32,000 nt of DNA from Deinococcus radiodurans R1 = ATCC 13939 = DSM 20539 (GCF_000008565.1 NC_000958.1:135432-167431); one strand, 5' to 3'. Counted from the stretch's first letter, positions 2,196 through 32,000 are shown. Notes: generated from the letters alone by a model not told the origin. A program made the numbers and translations.

Positions 2196-3179
2196 ATGAT
2201 TGCCGCGAGGAGCGTCAATCATCACGACCTGAGTGCCCATATGCCGGGGATGAGTACCCCGCAGGGCAAGAAGAGACGAGCAGACCGCACCTTCCGGGAT
2301 GAGCAGCTGGACAGGGGCTTTTTCATCGCTCTGCTTGTCGTCCATCTTCCACCGGGGAAGGTTTTGCTAAGTCTGGACCGCACCAATTGGGAGCACGGGG
2401 AAACGCCCATCAACTTTCTGGTGCTTGGAGCCGTGGTTCACGGCTTCACCCTGCCGCTCATCTGGGTGCCTCTCGACCAGTCTGGGAACAGTCACACCTA
2501 CGCTCGAATGTGGCTGGTGTTGAAGCTCCTTCGGGCCTTGCCAGCGAAACGCTGGCTGGGCCTGGTGGCCGATCGGGAGTTCATCGGCGCGGAATGGTTC
2601 CGCTTTCTTCGTCGTCAGGGCATCAAGAGGGCAATTCGTATCCGACAGACCGACATGCTAGACGACATGAAGGGGAAAGAGTGGTTTGAGCACGTCCAGC
2701 ACGGTCATTTTCACGAGATTGGCGAAAAGGTGTTCGTGTTCGGGGAGTTGATGCGGGTGGTCGCAACGAGGTCACCCACAGGTGACCTCGTCATCATCGC
2801 CACAGATTTCAGTGCTCGGAAGACCTGGAGGCTCTACAAACAGCGCTGGTCGATTGAGTGCACCTTCAGCAGTTTCAAAAAGCGAGGCTTTGACTTAGAG
2901 CGAACCGGAATGACGGAAAGGAGCCGTCTACAGCGACTCTTCGGCCTGGTGACATTGGCTTGGATGTTCTGTTTGCGCCTGGGGGTCTGGCTGAGCCAGA
3001 CCTGGCCCATCCCCGTTCTGAAGCATGGTCGGAGAGCGGTCAGTCTGGTGCGGCACGGTGCTCAGCATCTCGTGGATGCCCTACGGTGGAAACCCCAACA
3101 GTTCATGGCGGTCCTAGAGGTGTTAATACAGCCTTTTTCCCCGCCAGGAGCGGCTGGAAGCGAAGTTGTCACCTACTGA
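2196..3179 (+). CDS. IS4-family DDE transposase (327 aa from first ATG)
   Basis: Contains LSLDRTNWEHG, LVADREFIG and YKQRWSIECTFSSFK (Y-x2-R-x3-E-x6-K). The frame stays open upstream to the stop at 2079-2081 with protein-like sequence (..LRIDTLQRLIDVLLAM..) but no ATG/GTG/TTG, so the true N-terminus is uncertain. Confidence 0.9.
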   Translation: MIAARSVNHHDLSAHMPGMSTPQGKKRRADRTFRDEQLDRGFFIALLVVHLPPGKVLLSLDRTNWEHGETPINFLVLGAVVHGFTLPLIWVPLDQSGNSHTYARMWLVLKLLRALPAKRWLGLVADREFIGAEWFRFLRRQGIKRAIRIRQTDMLDDMKGKEWFEHVQHGHFHEIGEKVFVFGELMRVVATRSPTGDLVIIATDFSARKTWRLYKQRWSIECTFSSFKKRGFDLERTGMTERSRLQRLFGLVTLAWMFCLRLGVWLSQTWPIPVLKHGRRAVSLVRHGAQHLVDALRWKPQQFMAVLEVLIQPFSPPGAAGSEVVTY

Positions 3180-5709: not shown

Positions 5710-6718
5710 TTATTGATCGCGGCGTAGATTTGAGTCGATAAGTCGTTGAGGCAGTTCGATATACCGAAGGCGCTGCCACGCGCTGACCAGTCGCCCTTTG
5801 AGTTCAACGATCGAACGCGCACAGAAATTCCCCAACGCATTCCGCTTCACGTATGCCCACACCAGCTCAATCGGGTTCAATTCCGGGGCGTACGGCGGTA
5901 GAAACACCAGTGAGAGGCGTTCGTGGGTCTCCACGAACGCCTGAGTGGCTTTAGATCGATGAATGCCCGCGTTGTCCAGCACTACCACAAGCTCCCCTTG
6001 GATGTGCCGCAGGAGGTGTCGAAAGAACTGAGTGACATCCGTACTCCGAATCGCTCCAGATCTTGTGTTTTGGAAGAATCGTCCGTCCGAGGTTATTGCC
6101 CCGATGGTGGAGAGCTTCTCCCAATTCGCCGGAAGCTTGACCAGGGGCGTCACGCCCCTGGTTCCCCAAGTCCGCCTTCGCACGCCTTTCAGCGAGAAGC
6201 CGACCTCATCCAGATACACTAGGATTGCGCCCTCAGCGACCTTTTTTTTCCAACTCCGGTGCAACCTGTTCTTTCCAGGATGCGATCCGAAGTTCGTTGC
6301 GCTCGGCCGCTCGGCCATCTGGCATCTGGGGCGTAAACCCCAAGCGTCTGAGAATCTTCCGCACGTGGTCGTGGTGGTACCACACGTCAAAGTGCCGCCC
6401 AATCAGGTTGGTGACGCGTAGGGTCGTCCAGGTGTCATCAGGGAAGCCATGGTGCAGGGCGCCCTCCCGCAGGAAGGTGCGAAGCTGCTCGTGTTGCGTC
6501 GCGCTCAGACGTGCAGAAGCGCCACGGGCAACGGTGGCCTGAAGGCCACCGTTACGCTTCAGGCGGGCTTTCCAGGTGTACACGGTGTGTACCGACACGC
6601 CGAAGTGCTGAGCAATCTCTCGGTTTCGATGCGTCCCTCGTTCAATCCATTCAAGCGCGGCCAAGCGGCGCTCCTCAAGCTGAGCGCGGGAATACTGGGT
6701 CGGCTGCCATCCGGGCAT
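5710..6718 (-). CDS. IS630-family transposase in two overlapping frames (OrfA 6233..6718 HTH part; OrfB 5710..~6250 DDE part)
   Basis: OrfA ends ..APELEKKGR*. OrfB continues ..WKKKVAEGAILVYLDEVGF.. with DDE-type blocks (VLDNAGIHRS, LPPYAPELNPIE). The frames meet in an A8 run, and OrfB is +1 relative to OrfA. Confidence 0.8.
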
Positions 6719-17369: not shown

Positions 17370-18691
17370 CAATGGTTCGTGCAGTTTTAGGCGGCTTTAA
17401 GTCCGAAATCCAGCGGACTGAACGGCGAATTCGCTCATTCTTCAAAGCGAGCCGAGAGGTCCAGATTGGATAAAATGACCTGGGCCAGCAGGGCGTTATA
17501 CGCCCTGCGTTTCATGTCTTCGAGACTGAACACCAGATCCTGCCCGCCACCTGCCGCTCGCAGGGCCTCCAGTCGGCAAAGATTCAGGGTCAGCAGCACC
17601 ACGTTCCAATGCGCCTCGATGCCCTGCTGTGACCGCAGTTGCACATCCTGGCCCCCCAGGAACTGTTTGGCATCCCGGAAGATCAGTTCGATCTCAAAGC
17701 GGCTTCGATACAGCGCCATGACCTCATGAGCCGGCATGGTCACAGCGGTGCTGAACAGCACCGCGTAGCCGGTGACCTGACCCTTTTTACCAATCTGCTG
17801 AATGACGACTGCGCGCACTTCCCGCGCCCACTGCACGCTCCAGACCACCTGCGTCCACACCCGCTCAGTCGGCCTTGCAGAGACGAGGTCGAAGCGCTGC
17901 AGGTCACTGAAGTCCACCTTACCGTCGAACTTCTTCTTTCGCCCCCGTCGTCTGGGATGCTCACCGGTGTAGAGGTCGTTGAGGTTGGCGTTGCGAGGCA
18001 ATCTGGAGATAAACGGGAGACCGTGACCCGTCACGGTCTCCACGATGGGTTCCTTCGCGTAATTCCCGTCGGCAACGACAGCAGCCAGATCAAGCTGTTG
18101 AACAGTCCGGAGATCGAGCAGCACGTCATCCAGCTGATCGGCGGCCTGTTCCAGACGAGTTGGAGCCTCAGACCCGGTCAGGGTCTGACGGACATCGACC
18201 GTCAAGGCCTGCCGGTGCTGGACATCAATGAGGGCACAACAGGATTGCTCGATTCCGCGTTCGGTCCGCGCGGCACAGCCATTCCAGAACGAGCCGAGGT
18301 GTGCGGTGTGCTGACCGGCTTTGCGGTGAAAAGAGGCGTCGATGGCCAGAACGCACAGTGGGCTGATCAGCCCACTCTCGATTGCTGTACTGACAGTCGC
18401 CTGGTGTAACGCGCCCCACGGAATGGCCCCATCGTCACTTCGGTGCAGCCAACGACGAATCGTACTCTCCGAGCAGGCTGCATACCGGGAGAGATTCAGG
18501 GCGTTCAGCCGTCCAGGAACAGCGAGAAAAACGCTGAGCAGCACGGTCAGGAAATTCCGCTGCGTCTTGCGCAGCGGGACCGCGCTGAGAACGTACTGTA
18601 GGATGGCCATCAGACCCATTGGAAGCGGTGATTTCACAGCTCCATTTTCAATGGGTCTTTCCTTTTGGGCTCAAAACTGCACGAACCATTG
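17370..18691 (-). mobile_element. IS-A (IS4/IS701-like DDE family), complete copy, 1322 bp
   Basis: 19-bp terminal inverted repeats CAATGGTTCGTGCAGTTTT (17370-17388) and AAAACTGCACGAACCATTG (18673-18691). It is inverted relative to the partial copy at 1..775. Confidence 0.9.
17435..18637 (-). CDS. DDE transposase of IS-A (400 aa)
   Basis: Candidate catalytic residues lie in VLAIDASFH, VVADGNYAKE and YRSRFEIELIFRDAK. It fills the element between the terminal repeats. Confidence 0.9.
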   Translation of the reverse strand: MKSPLPMGLMAILQYVLSAVPLRKTQRNFLTVLLSVFLAVPGRLNALNLSRYAACSESTIRRWLHRSDDGAIPWGALHQATVSTAIESGLISPLCVLAIDASFHRKAGQHTAHLGSFWNGCAARTERGIEQSCCALIDVQHRQALTVDVRQTLTGSEAPTRLEQAADQLDDVLLDLRTVQQLDLAAVVADGNYAKEPIVETVTGHGLPFISRLPRNANLNDLYTGEHPRRRGRKKKFDGKVDFSDLQRFDLVSARPTERVWTQVVWSVQWAREVRAVVIQQIGKKGQVTGYAVLFSTAVTMPAHEVMALYRSRFEIELIFRDAKQFLGGQDVQLRSQQGIEAHWNVVLLTLNLCRLEALRAAGGGQDLVFSLEDMKRRAYNALLAQVILSNLDLSARFEE

Positions 18692-20526: not shown

Positions 20527-21510
20527 ATGATTGACGCGAGGAGCGTCAATCATCACGACCTGAGTGCCCATATGCCGGGGATGAGTACCCCGCAGGGCAA
20601 GAAGAGACGAGCAGACCGCACCTTCCGGGATGAGCAGCTGGACAGGGGCTTTTTCATCGCTCTGCTTGTCGTCCATCTTCCACCGGGGAAGGTTTTGCTA
20701 AGTCTGGACCGCACCAATTGGGAGCACGGGGAAACGCCCATCAACTTTCTGGTGCTTGGAGCCGTGGTTCACGGCTTCACCCTGCCGCTCATCTGGGTGC
20801 CTCTCGACCAGTCTGGGAACAGTCACACCTACGCTCGAATGTGGCTGGTGTTGAAGCTCCTTCGGGCCTGGCCAGCGAAACGCTGGCTGGGTCTGGTGGC
20901 CGATCGGGAGTTCATCGGCGCGGAATGGTTCCGCTTTCTTCGTCGTCAGGGCATCAAGAGGGCAATTCGTATCCGACAGACCGACATGCTAGACGACATG
21001 AATGGGAAAGAGTGGTTTGAGCATGTCCAGCACGGTCATTTTCACGAGATCGGCGAAAAGGTGTTCGTGTTCGGGGAGTTGATGCGGGTGGTCGCAACGA
21101 GGTCACCTGTGGGTGACCTCGTCATCATCGCCACAGATTTCAGTGCTCGGAAGACCTGGAGGCTCTACAAACAGCGCTGGTCGATTGAGTGCACCTTCAG
21201 CAGTTTCAAAAAGCGAGGCTTTGACTTAGAGCGAACCGGAATGACGGAAAGGAGCCGTCTACAGCGACTCTTCGGACTGGTGACATTGGCTTGGATGTTC
21301 TGTTTGCGCCTGGGGGTCTGGCTGAGCCAGACCTGGCCCATCCCTGTTCTAAAGCATGGTCGGAGAGCGGTCAGTCTGGTACGGCACGGCGCTCAGCATC
21401 TCGTGGATGCCCTACGGTGGAAACCCCAACAGTTCATGGCGATCCTGGAGGTGTTCATCCAGGCTTTTTGCCTGCCAGGAGCGGCTGAAAGTGAAGTTGT
21501 CACCTACTGA
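20527..21510 (+). CDS. IS4-family DDE transposase (327 aa from first ATG)
   Basis: Same motifs as 2196..3179. The frame is open upstream to the stop at 20410-20412. Confidence 0.9.
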   Translation: MIDARSVNHHDLSAHMPGMSTPQGKKRRADRTFRDEQLDRGFFIALLVVHLPPGKVLLSLDRTNWEHGETPINFLVLGAVVHGFTLPLIWVPLDQSGNSHTYARMWLVLKLLRAWPAKRWLGLVADREFIGAEWFRFLRRQGIKRAIRIRQTDMLDDMNGKEWFEHVQHGHFHEIGEKVFVFGELMRVVATRSPVGDLVIIATDFSARKTWRLYKQRWSIECTFSSFKKRGFDLERTGMTERSRLQRLFGLVTLAWMFCLRLGVWLSQTWPIPVLKHGRRAVSLVRHGAQHLVDALRWKPQQFMAILEVFIQAFCLPGAAESEVVTY

Positions 21511-21511
21511 G

Positions 21512-21520
21512 GAAACCGGT
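21512..21520. repeat. 9-bp direct repeat GAAACCGGT abutting the outer (right) end of IS-B copy 2; partner at 1965..1973
   Basis: See 1965..1973. Confidence 0.85.
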
Positions 21521-21741: not shown

Positions 21742-24700
21742 GTGAATATTTTCGAGTTCCGTCAGGAAGTCATCAACCAGTACGCCTCCTACGTCTCTTC
21801 CTTCGTTTATATCCGCGACCGGGACGTGCGCGCCTATGTGGACGCACAGATGCGGAGTGGGGTCTTCTGGCCTGATCCTCTTGCGCAACTCAACCCCAAC
21901 TTCACGCCGGGCGGCAGCGTCAGTGACCTTGTCAGTCAAGGGGTCCTGCACCCGGACTGCGCCGCGCTGTTTGCGGCTGGTGAGCCGCGCTCTCCCCTCA
22001 ACTTGCACGCCCACCAGCGCGACGCGGCTCGGCTGGCCCGTGAGGGGCGCTCGTATGTCGTGACCACCGGTACCGGTTCGGGCAAATCACTGACCTACAT
22101 CCTCCCTATCGTGGACCACGTGCTGCGCCGCGGCAGCGGCAAGGGCATCCAGGCCATCGTGGTCTACCCGATGAACGCGCTTGCCAACAGTCAGGTGGAA
22201 GAACTCAGCAAGTTCCTGGGCGACAACGGACCCGTGACTTTTCGGCGCTACACCGGCCAGGAAAAACGCGAAGAAAAAGACGCCATCATCGCCAATCCGC
22301 CGGACATCCTGCTGACCAACTACATGATGCTGGAACTGATTCTCACCCGGCAGGACGAAGCCGCGCTGGTCCGGGCTGCTGAGGGCGTGCGCTTCGTGGT
22401 TTTTGACGAGCTTCATACCTACCGTGGGCGGCAGGGGGCAGACGTAGCGCTGCTGATTCGCCGCCTGCGCGAGAGACTAAGGGCCCCCGACGCCATTTGC
22501 GTCGGTACCAGCGCCACGATGTCGTCCAGTCCGGTGTATGCCGAGCGGCAAAGGGCTGTCGCGGACGTGGCCTCGCGGCTCTTTGGGTTGGACATGACCC
22601 CCGAGCAGGTCATCGGGGAAATGTTGGAGCGCGTGACCTCAGGCGAGCCGGGCACCGCCGAGCTGAAAGCTGCCGTGGCCGCGCCAGTGCCGTCCACCTT
22701 TGAAACCTTTATTCGCGACGCCTTGGTGGTGTGGCTTGAAAACATGGTGGGCCTCCGGTGGGACGGCGAGGCGAAGCGCTATGACCGACAACCACCACAG
22801 GCCGTGGCGGGGGACGGGGGGCTGGCGGCGCAGCTCGCCCTGGAAACGGGCCTCCCCGTGATGCAGTGCCTGGAAGCCCTGCAAGGCCGCCTCCTCGCCG
22901 GCAACGCTCTGCAGCACCCGGCCACGGGGCGACCGGTGTTCGCGTTTCGGCTTCACCAGTTCATCAGCAAGGCGGCCACCGTCTACGCCCCGCTGCTGCC
23001 CTGCGCCGAGCGCCTGGAACACCTCACGTTGCGCGGACAGGTGTACGCCCCGGAGAGTGGGCGCACCCTGCGGCTTTACCCACTGGAGTTTTGCCGCAAC
23101 TGCGGGCAGGAATACTACTCAGTGCGCCGCGTCCCTGACCCTGACACGGGCCGTGAGGTGTTCGTGGCACGCGGCAATGAGGCCCGCCAAGAAAGCACGC
23201 CGGACGACGGCTATCTCTACCTCGGGGACCCCCCCTGGCCCCTGGACGAGGAGAAGCTGCTTGAGCGCCTGCCCGACAACTGGCTGGAGGAGAAGAACGG
23301 CCAACTGCGCGTGAAGTCCAGCCGCCGTGGGCAGCTCCCACGTACCGTGCGGGTGAGTGGTCTGGGTGAAGTGGGCCAAGCGGAAAGAGTCCGCGCCGCA
23401 TTCATAGAAGGCGAATTCCGCTTCTGCTTGTGCTGCGGCGTGAGTTATCTGGGCCGCACCGGCAAGCTGACCAAGCTTGCCACCCTGTCGAGCGAGGGGC
23501 GCTCCACGGCCACGACGCTGCTCAGCATGGCGGCGGTGCAGGGGCTGAGAAAGTCCGACCTGCGGGACACCGCCCGCAAGATTCTGTCGTTTACGGACAA
23601 CCGTCAAGACGCCTCTTTGCAGGCCGGGCACTTCAACGATTTCGTGTTCGTGGCCTCGCTGCGCGCCGCGTTGGCGCGGGCGCTTAAGGCAAGCCCACTC
23701 ACGCTCGAAGACGTAGCCCAGAAGGTGTTTGCAGCGTTAGAGCTGGACCTCGCTGCGTTCGCCAGCGACCCCAACGTGCGCTTCGGCGAGCGCGACCGCA
23801 CCCTCAAGACGGCCCACAACCTGATTGGCTACGCGCTCTATGCCGACCTTGCTGAAGGCCGCCGCCTGACCCTGCCCAACCTCGAAGGCGTGGACCTTGT
23901 GCGCTTCGAGTACCCCTACCTGCGAGAGGTTTGCGAAGCCCAAGACCTCTGGGAGCGGGCCCATCCGGCCCTGTCGGTGGTGCGCAGCGGCGTGGTCGAG
24001 GCGCGTGAGCGTGCCGCGCGGGCGCTGCTTGACTGGCTGCGGCAAAACCTCGCCATCAAGGCGCCTTACCTCGATCCCGACTATCTGGGCGCTGTGGTGC
24101 TGAACCTGGGCCTGATCCGCGAGGACAGCCCCCTGTCCCTACCGCCCGAAGAGGCGCAGAACCTCACCACAGCGCGGCGAGTGGTACTGGGCACGCTGCC
24201 ACGCGACGAGGGACGCTCCACCGGGCGACTCTCTTTGAGCGCCCAGGGGGCTGTTGGCCGCTACCTGACGCGCCCGGAAACGCTCGCCTGGAGCCAGGCC
24301 CTGAAGCGCGACGATGTGGACGCCATCTTGCATGACCTCTTGCTGGCCCTCTCTGAGTTCATCGAGCAGGTGGAGCCGGGCGCCTACCAACTCAAGGGAA
24401 CCAGTTTCACTTGGCACGCCGGGCCGGGCACCGAGCCGTCCGTGGACGCCTTGCGGGTGCTGCGTCCCGCGGGCAGCGAAGCGCCGCGCGTCAACTCGTT
24501 TTTCCTCTCGCTCTACCAGCAGCCCGCCGCCGAGTTTCGTGACCTTCACGGCGCCGAACACACCGCGCAGATTCGCGCTGAGGAACGCGAGAAGCGTGAA
24601 GAAGCCTTCCGCGCCGGCACCCTCCCCGCGCTGTTTTGCTCGCCCACCATGGAACTGGGCGTGGATATCAGCGACCTGAATGTGGTGCACCTGCGCAACG

Positions 24701-26862
24701 TGCCGCCCACCCCGGCCAACTACGCGCAGCGCTCCGGGCGTGCTGGGCGCAGCGGGCAGCCCGCACTGGTGATGACCTACGCCACCACCGGTAACAACCA
24801 TGACCAGTATTTCTTCCGGCGCCCGGGGCTCATGGTGGGCGGCAGCGTCTCTACCCCGCGGCTAGAACTGGGCAACGAGGCGCTGGTCAGGTCGCATGTG
24901 CACGCCATCTGGCTGGCCGAGACCGGCCAGAAGTTGCCGCCTTCGGTGGCCGAGCTGCTTGACGTGAATGGTGAAGACCCCACTCTGGCGCTGCTGCCGG
25001 ACTTCCAGCATCCGTTTCAGGATGAGGGCGTACAAAAGCGCACTCTGATTCGGGCACGGCAGCTCATCGCTGGTCTGGGCGTGGACCTCACAGGGACCGG
25101 GTGGTACAGCGAGGAATGGCTCACTTACACCGTCAAACACGCCGCCCGTGAGTTTGACCGGGCCTGCGACCGCTGGCGTGACCTTTACCGCAGCGCCCTC
25201 TCGCAGCTTCACCTCAACAACGCCGTGCTGGCCGACGCGGGCAAACGCCACCTTCAGGAACAGGCGCGCCGCCTGCACGCTGAGGCGAACACGCAGCTCA
25301 GCTTGCTGCGCAGTCCTGAAGGCGAGCTGTCGGACTTTTACACCTACCGCTACTTGGCTTCTGAGGGCTTCTTACCGGGATACAACTTCGCGCGTCTGCC
25401 CCTCTCGGCTTACATACCCGGACGGCGCGGCGCGAAGGCAGGAAGGGACAGCTACCTCTCGCGGCCCCGCTTTCTGGCGCTCTCTGAGTTCGGGCCAAAC
25501 GCCATCGTCTATCACAACGGCGCGAAGTACGAGGCCCACAAAGTCATCGTGCCGGCCCGCGGTGAAACCAGTGAACTGCCCACAGTGAGTGCCCAGCGCT
25601 GTGAGCAGTGCGGCTACCTTCACCATGGCAGCGGCGACGTTCAGGGCGATCAGGGTGCCCGCGACGTGTGCGAGAACTGTCAGGCCCAGCTCGCGCCCCC
25701 GCGCCCGGACCTCTTCCGCATGACCTCAGTGGCGACCCGCCGCCGCGAGCGCATCAGCAGTGACGAAGAAGAGCGGCGCCGGATCGGCTTTGACGTCAAG
25801 AGCGGCATGCGCTTCGCTTCGCGCGGGGGGCGGGCCGACCGCGTGCAGGCGCTGGCAGCCACCGACGCGCCGCTGCTGCGCCTGACTTACGGCGACGGCG
25901 CGACGCTCTGGCGCATCAACTATGGCTGGCGCAACCGCGAAAACAAGCAGGAACTCGGCTTTCTCTTTGACCCCGAGACCTCACAGTGGCTCAGCAAGCA
26001 GGGGCACGAACGGAAGCTCAAGGCCGCCGGAGGACGGGACGTGGCCGTGCAGCGAGTGATTCCCTATGTGGAAGACACCCGCAATGTGCTGCTGATTGAG
26101 CCGGCCCTTCCTCTGGATGCGGGCGGCATGGCTACGCTGATGAGCGCTCTCAAAAACGCTGCGCAGCTCACCTACCAGCTGGAGGACAGTGAGCTCGCGG
26201 CCGAGTTGCTGCCCGACAGCCAGGAGCCGCGCCAAATTCTGCTGTACGAAGCGTCCGAAGGCGGGGCCGGCGTACTGCAAGATTTGGTGTTCCGCTCGGG
26301 GGCGCTGGGTGAAGTGGCCGCCGCGGCGCTGGGCCTGCTGCACTTTGACCCCCTGACGGGCGAGGATCACGGGCACGCCCCCCACGCGGCGGAGCGCTGC
26401 GAAGCGGCCTGCTACGACTGTCTGATGACTTATGGCAACCAGACGTTTCATGACCTGCTTGACCGCTTCGCCGTGCGCGAACTGCTGCTGCGACTGCGTG
26501 AGGCGCGGGTCACCTTGCCCGGTGACGCAGGCGACCCTTTTGAGACCCTCTGCGCGGCGTGCGGCAGTGAACTGGAGCGCGAATGGTTGCGCTTTGTGCG
26601 GGATGAGGGCCGGCGTCTGCCGTCACACGCGCAACTGCTCGTGCCGGACCACTACGCCCGCCCGGACTTCGCGTACGCCGAGCAGGCGGCCCTGATCTTC
26701 ATCGACGGGCCCCACCACGACCAGCCTGGTCAGACAGGCCGCGACGCCCGACTGCGCGAAGAGTTGGAGTTTGCCGGGTATACCGTCGTGCCCTTTACGC
26801 ATGACCGCAGCACCTGGCCGGCGCAACTTGCCCGCTACGCATTCATTTTCGGGGAAGGATAA
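21742..26862 (+). CDS. 1706-aa DExH-box helicase fused to a DUF1998/MrfA-type Zn-binding domain and a C-terminal DUF559/Vsr-like nuclease-fold module (DrmA+DrmB-like fusion)
   Basis: GTG start. Walker A TGTGSGKS (aa 109-116), DELH (222-225), SAT (257-259). CxxC pairs at C451/C454 and C562/C564/C565. Helicase-C motif [12 protein letters not shown] (996-1005). DUF1998-type [15 protein letters not shown] (from aa 1202) with Cys clusters C1287/C1290/C1310/C1313 and [15 protein letters not shown] (1553-1560). C-terminal ~100 aa has RPDF (D1642) and IFIDGPHHD (D1655) followed by [20 protein letters not shown]. Confidence 0.85.
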
Positions 26863-26864
26863 CT

Positions 26865-29690
26865 ATGACGTTTGATATCGGTTCAATGGTGCGTGCCCGT
26901 GGGCGCGACTGGGTGGTGCTGCCTGAAAGCGGCGCGGACTTCCTGCTGCTGCGTCCCCTGGGCGGCAGCGACGCAGAAATCGCGGGCGTGTACGCCGGGG
27001 AGGGTGGGGAGGAGGTCACCTCGGCAGCGTTCGCCCCCCCGAGCCCCGCGGCCTTCGGGACCGCGAGTGGAGCGCGGCTGCTGCTGAACGCGGCCCGGCT
27101 GGCGGTGCGCAGCGGCGCTGGGCCCTTCCGGTCCCTGAGCCGCCTGGGCGTGGAGCCGCGCCCGTACCAGCTGGTGCCGCTCCTCATGGCCCTGCGCCAG
27201 AGCCCGGCCCGGCTGATGATCGCCGACGACGTGGGCATCGGGAAGACGGTGGAAGCCGCCTTAATCGCCCGCGAGCTGCTGGACCGGGGCGAGATCGACC
27301 GCCTGACGGTCCTGTGCCCACCGCACCTGGCGGGACAGTGGGTGGAGGAATTGCGGGTCAAGTTCGGCATCGACGCGGTGGCCGTGCTGCCCGGCACCGC
27401 CCGGCGCCTGGAAAAGGGCTGTAACCCTGGCCAGAGCGTCTTTGAGCGCTACAAATTCACGGTGGTCAGTCTCGACCTCGTGAAGTCGGACCGGTGGCGG
27501 CAGGACTTTCTGACCAATGCGCCCGATTTCGTCATCGTGGACGAGGCGCACGCCAGTGCTGAGGGCGAGGGCATGGGCACCAAGCGCCACCAACGCTACC
27601 GGCTGCTCGAAGACCTCGCCAGGAAGGAAGACCGGCACCTGATTCTGGTCACCGCCACGCCCCACAGCGGCAAGGAAGACGCCTTCCGCAGCCTGCTGCG
27701 GCTGCTCAATCCCGACTTCGCCAGGCTGCCACTCGACCTCAGCGGGGCGCAAAACGAGCGTGCCCGCGCGACCCTGGCCCGGCACCTCGTGCAGCGCGGG
27801 CGTAAGGACATCGCAGAGTACCTGCAGGAAGACACTCCTTTTCCAACCCGGCGCGACGCCGAGCTGCACTACGCCTTGCACCCGGACTACGCCGCCCTCT
27901 TTGACGACGTGCTGGCCTACGCCCGCGAGAGTGTCCACGTGCCCGGCGAGGCCCAGAGCCGCACCCGCATTCGCTGGTGGGCGGCGCTGGGGCTGCTGCG
28001 GGCGCTGGCGAGTAGTCCGCAGGCCGCCGCCGCCACCCTGCGCGAGCGGGCCATAGCGGCGGACGACGGAGAGACCGACGAAGCGGTGATCGACCGGCTG
28101 GGCCGCGAGCTGGTGCTTGACCCCGAAGAGGGCGAGGACAGTGCCCTGGACATGACTCCTGGGGCTCAGGTGGACGGTGAGCAGAGTGAAACCACCGGGC
28201 GGCTGCTGACGCTGGCGAGCCGGGCCGACGCCCTGGCCGGGGCCAAGGACAACAAACTGAAGCTGCTGACGGCGCAGGTGCAGGGGCTCGTCGATCAGGG
28301 ATTTGCGCCCATTGTGTTTTGCCGCTTTATTGCCACCGCAGAGGCCGTGGCCGAGCACCTCCGGGGGGCCCTGAAAGGCAGCGAAGTGCTGGCGGTCACC
28401 GGACGTCACACGCCCGACGAGCGGGTGGACCGGGTGGAAGAGCTCGCCCGCGCTGAGCGGCGGGTGCTGGTGGCGACCGACTGCCTCTCTGAGGGCATCA
28501 ACCTGCAGGCGGCTTTCAGCGCTGTGATCCACTACGACCTGCCCTGGAACCCCACCCGACTCGACCAGCGCGAAGGCCGGGTCGACCGCTACGGGCAGGC
28601 CAGCCCCGAGGTGCGGGTGCTGACCATCTACGGCGAGGACAACCGCATTGACACCCTGATTCTGGAGGTGCTGGTGCGCAAGCACCGCTTGATTCGCGCC
28701 ACGCTCGGCACCAGTGTGCCGGCGCCGGAAGAGGCCGAGAGCCTGCTCGACGTGCTGCTCAGCCGGGTGCTGAACGCGCAGGGGCGCGAAGTGATTCAGC
28801 CGCTGCTCTTTGAGGACGTGCAGGCCTTTGACCTCAAGTGGCGCGACGCCGCCGAAGGGGAAAAGAAATCGCGCAGCCGCTTTGCCCAGAACAGCATCCG
28901 CCCCGAAGAAGTGGCGAGCGAGTTGCGGGCAGTCCGTGAAGCGCTAGGGGACGCGCACGCGGCGCAAGACTTTGTGCTCGACGCTCTGAGTGGAGCCGGC
29001 GTGAGTGTTTCACCGCGTGTGGACGGCAGCTTCGAGGCCGACCCCGCGCAGGCGGACGTGAGGCCCGAGTACCGCGATTTCCTGCGTGGGGCGCGGCGTT
29101 TTCGCTTCGACGCCCAGACTGAGCGCGGCGTGACCCCGCTTGCCCGCAACCACCCCCTCGTGGAGCAGCTCGCCAGTACGGTGCTGGGGCAGGCGCTCGA
29201 CGCTCCGCTGGAGGCGGCGGCCAAACGGGTGGGCGTGATTCGCACCTCCAAGGTTGCCACGCAGACCACGCTGCTGCTGCTGCGTCACCGCTTTCACCTC
29301 ACGGGGCGCAAGGGCAACCGGACGTGGCAGACGCTGGCTGAGGAACTCGACCTGCTCGCCTACGCGGGGCGGGCACCGGCGGACGGGAAAGGCGGCTGGC
29401 TGGACGCCGAAGCCACCCGCGCCCTGCTCGCCCTGACGCCCGAAGGCAACCTCGACCCGGTGCAAAAAGAAGACCGCTTGACCCGCGTTCTGGCCGACGT
29501 TCAGGGCCTGGACGGGCCCCTGATGGCCCGCGCTCAGGAGCGCGCCGCCGCGCTGCTGGAGGCGCACGAGCGGGTGCGTGGGGCCGCGCGCGGGCAGGGC
29601 GTGACCTACAGCGTGGAACCGCCCGGCCCCCCAGACCTGCTCGGCATTTACGTCTTCCTGCCCCTGCCCAAACTTGGAGCCCTGTCTTGA
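26865..29690 (+). CDS. SNF2-family helicase (941 aa; DrmD-like)
   Basis: SD GGGGAAGGA lies 5 nt upstream of the ATG, which is 2 nt after the upstream stop. DDVGIGKT (K127), VIVDEAHAS (DEAH 226-229), [46 protein letters not shown]. Confidence 0.9.
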
Positions 29691-32000
29691 CCACCCAACT
29701 ACATCATGTCCGCCTGCACGGCCTGGGCCTGACCGACGATTTTCTGCTGCAACTTTCCGACCGCGCCCAGACGGGCAAGGTCGAGGGGGCCACTCCCGCC
29801 AGCTACGACCTGCCCCCCAAGACCAGTCTGGAAGAAGCCATTCAGGACGCCTGGGACGACGCCCGCAAAGCGTGGGCGAAATACCAGCAGCACGGCACCG
29901 ACGCCTGGGCTGGATGGGTGCGGCCTCTGCTGCGCGCGCTGGACTACAACTTCGTGGGGGGCGGCGCGGCGGGCGGCAAATACGCCGTGGGCCACCTCAC
30001 GGAAACCGGGGACGTGCCGCTGCATTTCACCCGGCAGCCGGACCTTGACCGCGTGACCGACGAAACCGGGCTGCGCGTCAGTCCGCACGGCCTGATGCAG
30101 GGCTACCTGAACGCGACGCCGGAGCATCTGTGGGGCCTCGTGACCAACGGCGAGACGCTGCGGCTGCTGCGCGACAACGCCCAGGTGACGCGCCCGGCCT
30201 ACGCCGAGTTCCAGATTGGCGAGATGCTGCGCACCGAGGACGCCCGCGCCTTCCGGGTGCTGTGGCTGCTGCTCCACCGCACCCGGCTGCGCGGCGGCAA
30301 GGTGGGGCCGCTGGAAGCCTGGAACGAGGCGAGCAAGGTGCTCGGCCAGCGCGCCAACGACACCCTGCGCGACGGGGTACAGCTCGCCATCGAGCACCTC
30401 GGGACCGGCTTTTTGCGGCACAACCCGGAGCTGCTGGAGCGCACGCGCAGCGGCGAAGTCAAGGCCGAGGACCTCTACCGCGCGGCCCTGACCACCGTGT
30501 ATCAGATGGTGTTCCTGTTCGTCACCGAGGACCGCGACCTGCTGTTTGCGCGGGATGAAGACGGCGAATACCTTCCCGACGCGCAGACCCGCGCCCGCGC
30601 CGCGCACTACCTGACCCGCGCCCTGCGGCAGAAAGCCGGCAGCGTAAACGGCAACCCGCTGCACCACGACGCTTACGTGGCCTGGGAGCGGCTGCTGGGC
30701 TACCTGCGCGGCGGCTTTGCCCCGCTGGGCCTGCCGGCGCTGGGCAGCCTGCTGTTTCAGCCGACCCTGCTCAGTGGCCTGAAACTCGGCAACGACGCTT
30801 TTTACGGCGCCGTGCGCGCCCTGAGCGAAATCAGCGTGAACGGCAGCCTGCGTCCGGTGAACTACGCGGGCCTGGACTCCGAGGAGCTGGGCAGCATCTA
30901 CGAGAGCCTGCTGGAACTGGTGCCCCGCATCGAGCCGGGGCCCCGCTTCTCGCTGACCGTGCTGCCCGGCAATGAGCGCAAAAGCACCGGCAGTTACTAC
31001 ACGCCGGGCAGCCTGATTGACCTGCTGCTGGACAGCGCCCTTGACCCGGTGATCGAAGACGCCGTACGTGACAAGCTCCCGGAAGACGCCATCGCCGCGC
31101 TTAAAGGTCTCAAGGTGATCGACCCGGCGTGCGGCTCGGGGCACTTCCTGATTGCCGCCGCCCGCCGCATTGGAGCGCGGCTGGCCGAACTGGAAGAGGA
31201 AACCAGCCTCCCCAGCCCCCGCGCCCTGCGAAAAGCCACCCGCACCGTCATCGCCCACTGCATCTACGGGGCGGACATCAACCCCATGGCGATTGAGCTG
31301 GCCAAAGTCGCCCTGTGGCTCGAAAGCCAGGACGCGGGCCGGCCCCTGGCCTTCCTCGACCACCGCCTGCGCGTGGGCAACAGCCTGCTGGGCGCCACGC
31401 CCGAGCTGATGAACGCCGAGGACGAGATTCCCGAAAAGACCGTGCGCGGCGTGACCAGCCGGGCCGTCAGGGCCCATACCCTTCACCTGCCCGACGAAGC
31501 GTTCAGCGCCATTTAAGGTGACGACAAGAAAACCGTCTCGGAGCTGAAAAAGCGCAACAAGGCCGAGCGTGAGGCCCTGATTCGCGCTGCCAAAGGCGAA
31601 CAGAGCCTGTTCGACGTGTCCGGCGACCTCGCGCCCCTCACGGCAATGGTGCGGGCGCTGGACAAAATCGAACCCGACAGCGCCGAGCACGTGCAGGCGC
31701 AGCAGAGTACCTACCACGCCATTCGCCAGAACGCCCGCTTGCAGGAGCAGCAGCGCCTGGCCGACGCCTGGTGCGCCGCCTTCGTCGCCCCCAAGACCCC
31801 CGGCCAACCCGCGCTAACCACCGCCACGCTGCACGCCCTGAAACGCACGCCGGACGCCCCCGCCCTGCAACCCGTGCGGCAACTGGTGAGCGACGTGGCC
31901 GCGCAGTACGCCTTCCTGCATCCGCACATCGAGTTTCCCGACGTGTTCGGAGACGCGCAAAAAGGTGGCTTCGACTGCGTGCTGGGCAACCCACCGTGGG
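29687..32000 (+). pseudogene. large Eco57I-type (gamma-class) N6-adenine DNA methyltransferase interrupted by an in-frame TAA at 31514-31516; 3' end outside window (DrmMI-like)
   Basis: TTG start in a TTGA overlap with the SNF2 stop. Motif I VIDPACGSGHFL (~31115-31150), [28 protein letters not shown]. After ..PDEAFSAI-TAA the same frame stays open to the window end ([19 protein letters not shown]...) and reaches motif [13 protein letters not shown] (NPPW at 31988-31999). Confidence 0.75.

Follow-up and report, generated by a model that had tools for sequence, protein, structure and literature searches.

An in-frame stop codon and an ISDra3 insertion interrupt the armB-like methyltransferase gene of an ARMADA Type I operon in Deinococcus radiodurans R1

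Results

The methyltransferase frame is interrupted between its AdoMet-binding and catalytic motifs

Deinococcus radiodurans R1 carries on megaplasmid MP1 an operon of two helicase genes followed by an armB-like gene for a large DNA methyltransferase. We analyzed a 32,000-nucleotide stretch (NC_000958.1:135432-167431; the window) that contains both helicase genes and the first part of the methyltransferase gene, all on the plus strand. The methyltransferase gene is recorded in two parts, DR_B0137 and DR_B0138, and is named DraR1ORF15360P in REBASE. A first-pass annotation, made from the sequence alone, had noted that a single TAA codon separates the S-adenosylmethionine (AdoMet)-binding motif of the enzyme from its catalytic motif.

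DR_B0137 (29687-31516) is the 5' fragment of a PglX/DrmMI-like N6-adenine methyltransferase gene and consists of 609 codons followed by TAA. The frame starts at TTG 29687, which overlaps the TGA (29688-29690) of the upstream SNF2 gene, and a Shine-Dalgarno-like GGAG (29676-29679) lies 7 nt before it. The fragment encodes the N-terminal domain and, of the catalytic domain, the half that binds AdoMet. Motif I, the AdoMet-binding loop DPACGSGHFL, can be read directly at 31121-31150, and its residues are the near-invariant columns D479-L488 of an orthologue alignment. The TAA (31514-31516) replaces a conserved glutamate codon (Glu610) that encodes the first residue of a conserved EGDDKK segment.

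The same frame continues after the stop (31517-32000). It is open for 161 codons to the window end and reaches GNPPW, which is conserved in all full-length orthologues aligned; motif IV itself, the catalytic loop NPPW, is read directly at 31988-31999. There is no Shine-Dalgarno sequence or start codon directly after the stop. The first in-frame GTG is at 31616, where RefSeq begins DR_B0138, and the first ATG is at 31646; we found no usable Shine-Dalgarno sequence before either. The first-pass annotation had described the frame, its stop, the continuation and the late start codons in these terms, and direct reading of the sequence agreed with it on each.

The two pieces belong to one gene because they match adjoining parts of a single profile and both ends of one domain. 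The 5' piece matched positions 543-721 of the PADLOC DrmMI profile (E = 1.7e-65) and the 3' piece matched positions 733-878 (E = 3.8e-10). For the Pfam Eco57I domain, the N-terminal fragment covered model positions 1-66 and the C-terminal fragment 54-84. The stop falls in an insertion of roughly 190 residues, specific to the family, that separates motifs I-III from motif IV. Because it splits the Eco57I matches, and given the known order of methylase motifs, the N-terminal fragment lacks the catalytic loop and the downstream fragment lacks the AdoMet site. Judged by motif content, neither fragment is predicted to be capable of acting as an enzyme.

The stop codon is genuine

We found the stop in every R1-type record whose DNA was read (L001, L003 and L004), and it is likewise present in 14 complete MP1 plasmid records, which are 99.9-100% identical over the stretch. 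The 609-amino acid product matches AAF12566.1 and ANC73228.1 of D. radiodurans R1 at every residue. It occurs exactly on 137 contigs, in 172 sample blocks, including short-read (Illumina) assemblies from ENA and Logan. The records with the stop range from the 1999 Sanger protein record to later PacBio and other assemblies.

The first-pass annotation had raised a sequencing error as one explanation, in which the true codon would be a sense codon and the gene would be intact at this point. There is some reason to ask, since errors are present in the R1 genome of 1999 and in several long-read assemblies, and other records of this locus carry false homopolymer frameshifts. However, all differences between the assemblies over 13 kb of the locus are losses of a single base in C or G homopolymers, whereas the TAA is a substitution, lies outside any homopolymer and is identical in the three records read. 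This, the 14 plasmid records and the exact product in 172 sample blocks, independent Illumina assemblies among them, exclude the explanation for practical purposes, and we give it next to no weight. We conclude that the TAA is a real nonsense mutation and is fixed.

A strain polymorphism had been offered alongside a sequencing error. It holds in a narrow sense, in that the nearest relative outside R1 has GAA (see below); all R1-type records read carry TAA. A record labelled as a Korean soil isolate differs from R1 here by homopolymer deletions only. The mutation may have arisen at any point before the laboratory sublines diverged.

The homopolymer deletions affect gene calls in some records. 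Compared with the window, CP015083 and CP094464 differ only in lacking one base within runs of 5-7 C or G, at 23229, 27034, 29153, 29627, 29813 and 29956. Errors of this kind are typical of long reads, and because of them the annotations of the two records show DR_B0135, DR_B0136 or DR_B0137 as falsely split. The helicase gene calls of CP050118 are likewise fragmented.

The ancestral codon is GAA

A homologue search found 6979 proteins, and lengths were judged on the best 120. Nearly all of these 120 are single proteins of about 1300-1340 amino acids. The first-pass annotation had suggested aligning orthologues to see which residue occupies the position of the stop. It is Glu in 19 of the 20 orthologues aligned and Thr in the other, and the site is followed by a near-invariant Gly-Asp.

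The closest relative of the R1 locus is that of Deinococcus sp. GCA_054352955.1 (L002), which is 98.95% identical to the window over 10,490 ungapped bases. L002 has GAA at the stop site and an intact methylase gene of 1330 amino acids. The ancestral codon is thus GAA and the lesion is one G-to-T change at 31514, in line with the earlier remark that the stop is a single substitution away from a sense codon.

Most differences between the R1 and L002 methylase genes are synonymous (39 codons, versus 9 non-synonymous). Before the stop the counts are 23 and 7, and after it 16 and 2. Because the differences are mostly synonymous, the gene was under purifying selection until recently.

The first-pass annotation had also considered that orthologues might naturally be encoded as two genes divided at this very position, with a proper start for the second. 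This did not hold up: the orthologues are single genes with Glu at the site, there is no start signal after the stop, and none of the homologues examined is naturally split here. The order helicase-SNF2-methylase is also found in L002, in D. arcticus and D. roseus, and in Phototrophicus (Chloroflexota).

In two other species, one assembly has a fragmented methylase and another has a long copy: D. malanensis (P0037/P0130-P0132) and D. radiophilus (P0009/P0133/P0134). The break points differ from that of R1, and the break in D. malanensis lies ~15 codons downstream of the position of the R1 stop. Our guess is that the D. malanensis break stems from a homopolymer sequencing error. The idea that the gene breaks repeatedly, or in a programmed way, at this site in other Deinococcus was considered and rejected, as the break points differ and the fragmented copies are probably assembly errors.

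ISDra3 cuts the same gene a second time

We found a second lesion about 1.16 kb past the window end, where an ISDra3 element (IS630 family) cuts the same methylase gene. The element spans 16160-17226 of L001 (NZ_CP038993.1), which corresponds to about 1.16-2.2 kb past the window end, and has 27-nt terminal inverted repeats and a TA target duplication. Duplication of TA is typical of the IS630 family. A 161-amino acid "hypothetical protein" annotated after ISDra3 is the C-terminal end of the methylase, and the downstream fragment, cut by the element, lacks the last ~160 residues.

When ISDra3 and one copy of the TA were removed in silico and the TAA was changed to GAA, the gene became a single uninterrupted open reading frame of 1320 amino acids. 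Because undoing both lesions restores one frame, the gene has exactly two lesions and no frameshift. We did not find a state with one lesion: all contigs with the 609-amino acid product either include ISDra3 or end a few bases into it.

These results bear on programmed recoding, in which useful amounts of a longer product would arise by readthrough of the TAA. Nothing specific speaks for recoding; there is only the open frame past the stop. That frame is open because the mutation is young: both before and after the stop, most differences from L002 are synonymous. L002 has a plain GAA, no orthologue has a conserved stop at the site, and a readthrough product would still end in ISDra3. In addition, UAA is the most efficient bacterial terminator. 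We consider recoding extremely improbable.

Public records and the R1 methylome

The split is already on record in public annotation and in REBASE. RefSeq has two coding sequences here, each named "class I SAM-dependent DNA methyltransferase", with the second beginning at GTG 31616. A REBASE-derived table lists DR_B0137 and DR_B0138 together as one enzyme, DraR1ORF15360P (PMC6712171, Table S3), and a deletion primer of the same study matches the window at 29666-29690.

Methylome evidence for R1 comes from published SMRT sequencing (single-molecule, real-time). The first-pass annotation had proposed looking in such data for an N6-methyladenine (m6A) motif attributable to this enzyme; the published data for R1 contain no m6A motif (PMC6712171). 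As regards an active gamma-class N6-adenine methyltransferase, R1 thus has motifs I and IV on an interrupted domain and, in the published SMRT data, no host m6A motif.

R1 has three large m6A methylase or Type IIG-like genes, DR_2267 (DraRI), DR_A0119/DR_A0119.1 and DR_B0137/DR_B0138, and all three are recorded as disrupted or split (REBASE; PMC6712171). The disruption of the DraRI reading frame is attributed to Morgan et al. 2009, as cited in PMC6712171. DraRI and DR_A0119/DR_A0119.1 differ from the gene studied here in that they are MmeI/YeeA-type, stand-alone and chromosomal, and are not in a helicase operon. These records show a strain-wide pattern of decayed m6A systems in R1, and the strain is without any m6A motif because all three of the large methylase genes are broken.

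The operon has the ARMADA Type I arrangement

Upstream of the methylase gene are two intact helicase genes. DR_B0135 (21742-26862) encodes a YprA-family, ArmC-like helicase of 1706 amino acids. Pfam domains in it are DEAD, Helicase_C and MZB/DUF1998 (MZB at residues 1467-1561); its PADLOC matches are DruE/DrmA/DpdJ-like, and its best relatives in PDB and PADLOC are of the DruE/YprA type. DR_B0136 (26865-29690) encodes a SNF2/RapA/BrxHII-like, ArmA-like helicase of 941 amino acids, with Pfam SNF2-rel_dom and Helicase_C domains. It matches the PADLOC models BrxHI/BrxHII (best 3.9e-62) and DrmD, NCBIfam RapA (4e-37), and NCBIfam DISARM_DrmD with 312 bits (cut-off 610).

Both helicases are equal in length to their L002 counterparts. 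The codon differences are 20 synonymous and 9 non-synonymous for DR_B0135, and 20 and 6 for DR_B0136. The first-pass annotation had suggested that the modification gene of the system is inactivated and both helicase genes remain intact; the 1706- and 941-amino acid lengths, shared with L002, and the mostly synonymous changes accord with that view.

The C-terminus of DR_B0135 (window about 26560-26859) contains the conserved motif RPDF..(I/V)DGxxHD..RD..GY.V..F. Pfam DUF559 (Vsr-like) was matched by 4 of 4 orthologue C-termini (best E 4.1e-5); DR_B0135 itself scored 18.9 bits, under the cut-off of 20.6, and a PDB profile search with the helicase C-terminus returned no Vsr structure. Together the matches give a weak but consistent indication of a putative Vsr-type PD-(D/E)xK nuclease domain.

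The PADLOC model PDLC02853, labelled DpdE, matches DR_B0136 from end to end (1.4e-231), far above the DrmD and BrxH models. The model thus probably stands for ArmA-type helicases of ARMADA and not for Dpd.

The operon has the ARMADA Type I arrangement. ARMADA Type I consists of a YprA-like helicase, a BrxHII-like helicase and a PglX-like methylase and is often found beside McrBC (Bell et al. 2025, 10.1101/2025.09.15.676423). The placement of DR_B0135 in the ARMADA I clade is taken from the supplementary table of Bell et al., which names it "ARMADA Type I helicase, DR_B0135, AAF12564.1" (PMC12458937). The R1 operon shares with this type the gene order, the DUF1998/MZB domain, the C-terminal Vsr/DUF559-type nuclease motif and a nearby canonical McrBC operon. 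It differs in that the methylase gene is a pseudogene (nonsense codon and ISDra3) and an IS4-like element abuts the operon upstream. Thus not all components are intact in R1, owing to the TAA at 31514-31516 and to ISDra3.

Three other systems have related methylases. ArmB of ARMADA Type II (E. coli NCTC 12900 and EDL933) is likewise an N6-adenine methylase of the PglX/YeeA-like kind; it has GxG and NPPW motifs, and its operon also encodes an SNF2 and a YprA-like helicase. Type II differs in its strictly reversed order, armA-armB-armC, and in a fourth gene, armD (GajB-like), that is absent from the R1 operon. DrmMI of class 1 DISARM (Serratia sp. SCBI) gives the best PADLOC match (PDLC02643) and is also a large N6-adenine methylase with SNF2 and DUF1998 helicases. 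Class 1 DISARM differs in that drmA and drmB are separate genes and drmC, a PLD gene, is present, whereas in R1 the helicase and DUF1998 are fused in one protein (1706 amino acids) and neither the R1 locus nor L002 has a PLD gene. Canonical class 1 DISARM was rejected on account of this fusion, the missing PLD gene and the DrmD score of 312 versus 610 bits. BREX PglX models are the only named NCBIfam matches of the methylase, but these reach at most 49 bits against cut-offs of 400-900, and no other BREX genes are present. In BREX, the methylase is needed for modification and exclusion alike.

REBASE labels DraR1ORF15360P a Type IIG enzyme, a class in which a nuclease domain is fused to the methyltransferase. 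As to such a domain, the first 400 methylase residues have no Pfam match even at E values up to 10. Searched against PDB, the intact methylase matched only the MmeI methylase region, at residues 423-577, a marginal match at the level of sequence; a PDB profile search with the methylase alignment found nothing.

Consequence of the lesions for the operon

Our results are best explained by a change of GAA to TAA at Glu610 that inactivated the armB-like gene of an ARMADA Type I operon; with ISDra3, which cuts the gene again, it is a young pseudogene with exactly two lesions. The helicase genes are probably still intact simply because there has been too little time for decay. That the methylase gene is a pseudogene is very probable.

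ARMADA Type II ArmB is the best available model for what the mutation would do. In ARMADA II, deletion of armB or mutation of NPPW abolishes defence, and the mutants are viable and grow (10.1101/2025.09.15.676423; PMC13463889). In class 1 DISARM, no autoimmunity is seen without drmMI and drmMII (10.1101/2021.12.28.474362). Because ARMADA II defence needs the methylase and its loss is non-autoimmune in both systems, the R1 operon would most likely be defence-dead and the loss tolerated. By this analogy we consider it probable that the whole R1 system is defence-dead, and most likely that its loss would be harmless to the host or tolerated by it. The first-pass annotation had asked whether the remaining genes are silenced, tolerated or act independently of methylation. 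The related systems give part of an answer: cells survive without the methylase, and in ARMADA II they lose defence.

Several points weigh against this interpretation. RefSeq treats the two pieces as ordinary coding sequences and not as a pseudogene. All carriers of the TAA are the R1 clone or near-identical to R1. The functional consequence rests on the analogy to ARMADA Type II and DISARM, as no ARMADA Type I system has been dissected experimentally. Finally, using liquid chromatography-tandem mass spectrometry (LC-MS/MS), Li et al. 2019 (PMC6712171) reported that ORF15360P and two other m6A genes are "involved in 6mA modification". If this is correct, it implies residual activity of ORF15360P. 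The same study reported that 6mA was undetectable after deletion of DraRI alone. The claim is internally inconsistent because there is no m6A motif by SMRT sequencing and 6mA is gone with the DraRI deletion alone. We regard it as unreliable for ORF15360P, yet it is the sole published statement that conflicts with complete inactivity. Caution is in order about the claimed contribution of ORF15360P to 6mA.

Certain DNA methyltransferases function as a pair of polypeptides. The 609-amino acid N-terminal fragment and a C-terminal fragment beginning at GTG 31616 might likewise form an active methyltransferase, and both the RefSeq coding sequence from that GTG and the LC-MS/MS claim could be taken as support. 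However, no homologue examined is split here, and the single-gene state and the gene order are kept from Deinococcus to Chloroflexota. GTG 31616 has no Shine-Dalgarno sequence, and a product restarted there would be 33 residues shorter and without EGDDKK..LKKRNK.ER, where the insertion is most conserved. ISDra3 also cuts the downstream fragment, which lacks the last ~160 residues, and there is no m6A motif by SMRT sequencing. A functional split enzyme seems to us very unlikely.

The stop could also be real and DR_B0135 and DR_B0136 could still work without methylation, for example in DNA repair or against some incoming DNA. The two helicase genes are intact, and DR_B0136 is listed in an R1 transcriptome table and so is expressed. 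DrmABC of class 1 DISARM still protects against phage M13 without either methylase (10.1101/2021.12.28.474362), and housekeeping relatives of YprA/MrfA act in DNA repair (Bell et al., introduction). In contrast, ARMADA II defence requires every gene, including armB and its NPPW. Intact helicase genes are expected in any case, as the locus is only about 1% from L002, and the ISDra1 element 230 bp upstream may have removed regulatory DNA. We consider methylation-independent function unlikely, although less so than a split enzyme or recoding. Somewhat less likely still is a variant in which R1 is a natural armB-null strain whose helicases, possibly with a stable 609-amino acid fragment, have been retained or repurposed for incoming or damaged DNA.

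What is new compared with the existing records is modest: GAA is established as the ancestral codon, the second lesion is assigned to this gene, two lesions explain everything, and the system is placed as ARMADA Type I. The finding matters little beyond housekeeping, and as a nonsense-plus-IS pseudogene the gene is ordinary. A single pseudogene annotation should cover DR_B0137, DR_B0138 and the small reading frame after ISDra3. R1 provides a natural example of an ARMADA Type I operon that can lose its methylase without killing the host, in agreement with the knock-outs in ARMADA II and class 1 DISARM. GCA_054352955.1, with its intact operon, is the better source for study of ARMADA Type I in Deinococcus.

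Surroundings of the operon

Directly upstream of the operon is the transposase gene of ISDra1, an IS4-like element (20527-21510, plus strand; Pfam DDE_Tnp_1, 1.5e-24; also in RefSeq). Similarity to L002 starts right after ISDra1, at 21512 (L001 4513), and about 230 bp of native upstream DNA are left before the helicase start. L002 carries a BTAD-domain gene where R1 has ISDra1.

Downstream, the methylase gene of L002 is followed directly by mcrB and mcrC, with a gap of only 50 bp before mcrB. In R1, a hicA-hicB toxin-antitoxin pair and a 177-amino acid reading frame lie between the methylase remnant and mcrB (L001 17775-19135; L009 11088-12448). Toxin-antitoxin-like genes also occur just 3' of the methylase in D. 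arcticus and D. roseus.

Identity between R1 and L002 falls from 98.95% to unalignable or 82-89% right after the NPPW codons (window 32000/32001, L001 15002). It is back to 98.8% inside mcrB, and the swapped block ends at L001 19780. Within the block are the C-terminal (specificity) half of the methylase, the hicAB pair and, from McrB, the N-terminal part that binds DNA. When the methylase orthologues are aligned, their C-terminal halves fall into a few types that do not track the phylogeny of the N-terminal part. The pattern suggests module exchange at the NPPW motif.

Insertion sequences are dense in the window: ISDra7 and ISDra1 occur twice each and an IS630-family element once. They lie at 1-710, 2196-3179, 5710-6718, 17435-18619 and 20527-21510, among siderophore-uptake, hemolysin-family and transporter genes.

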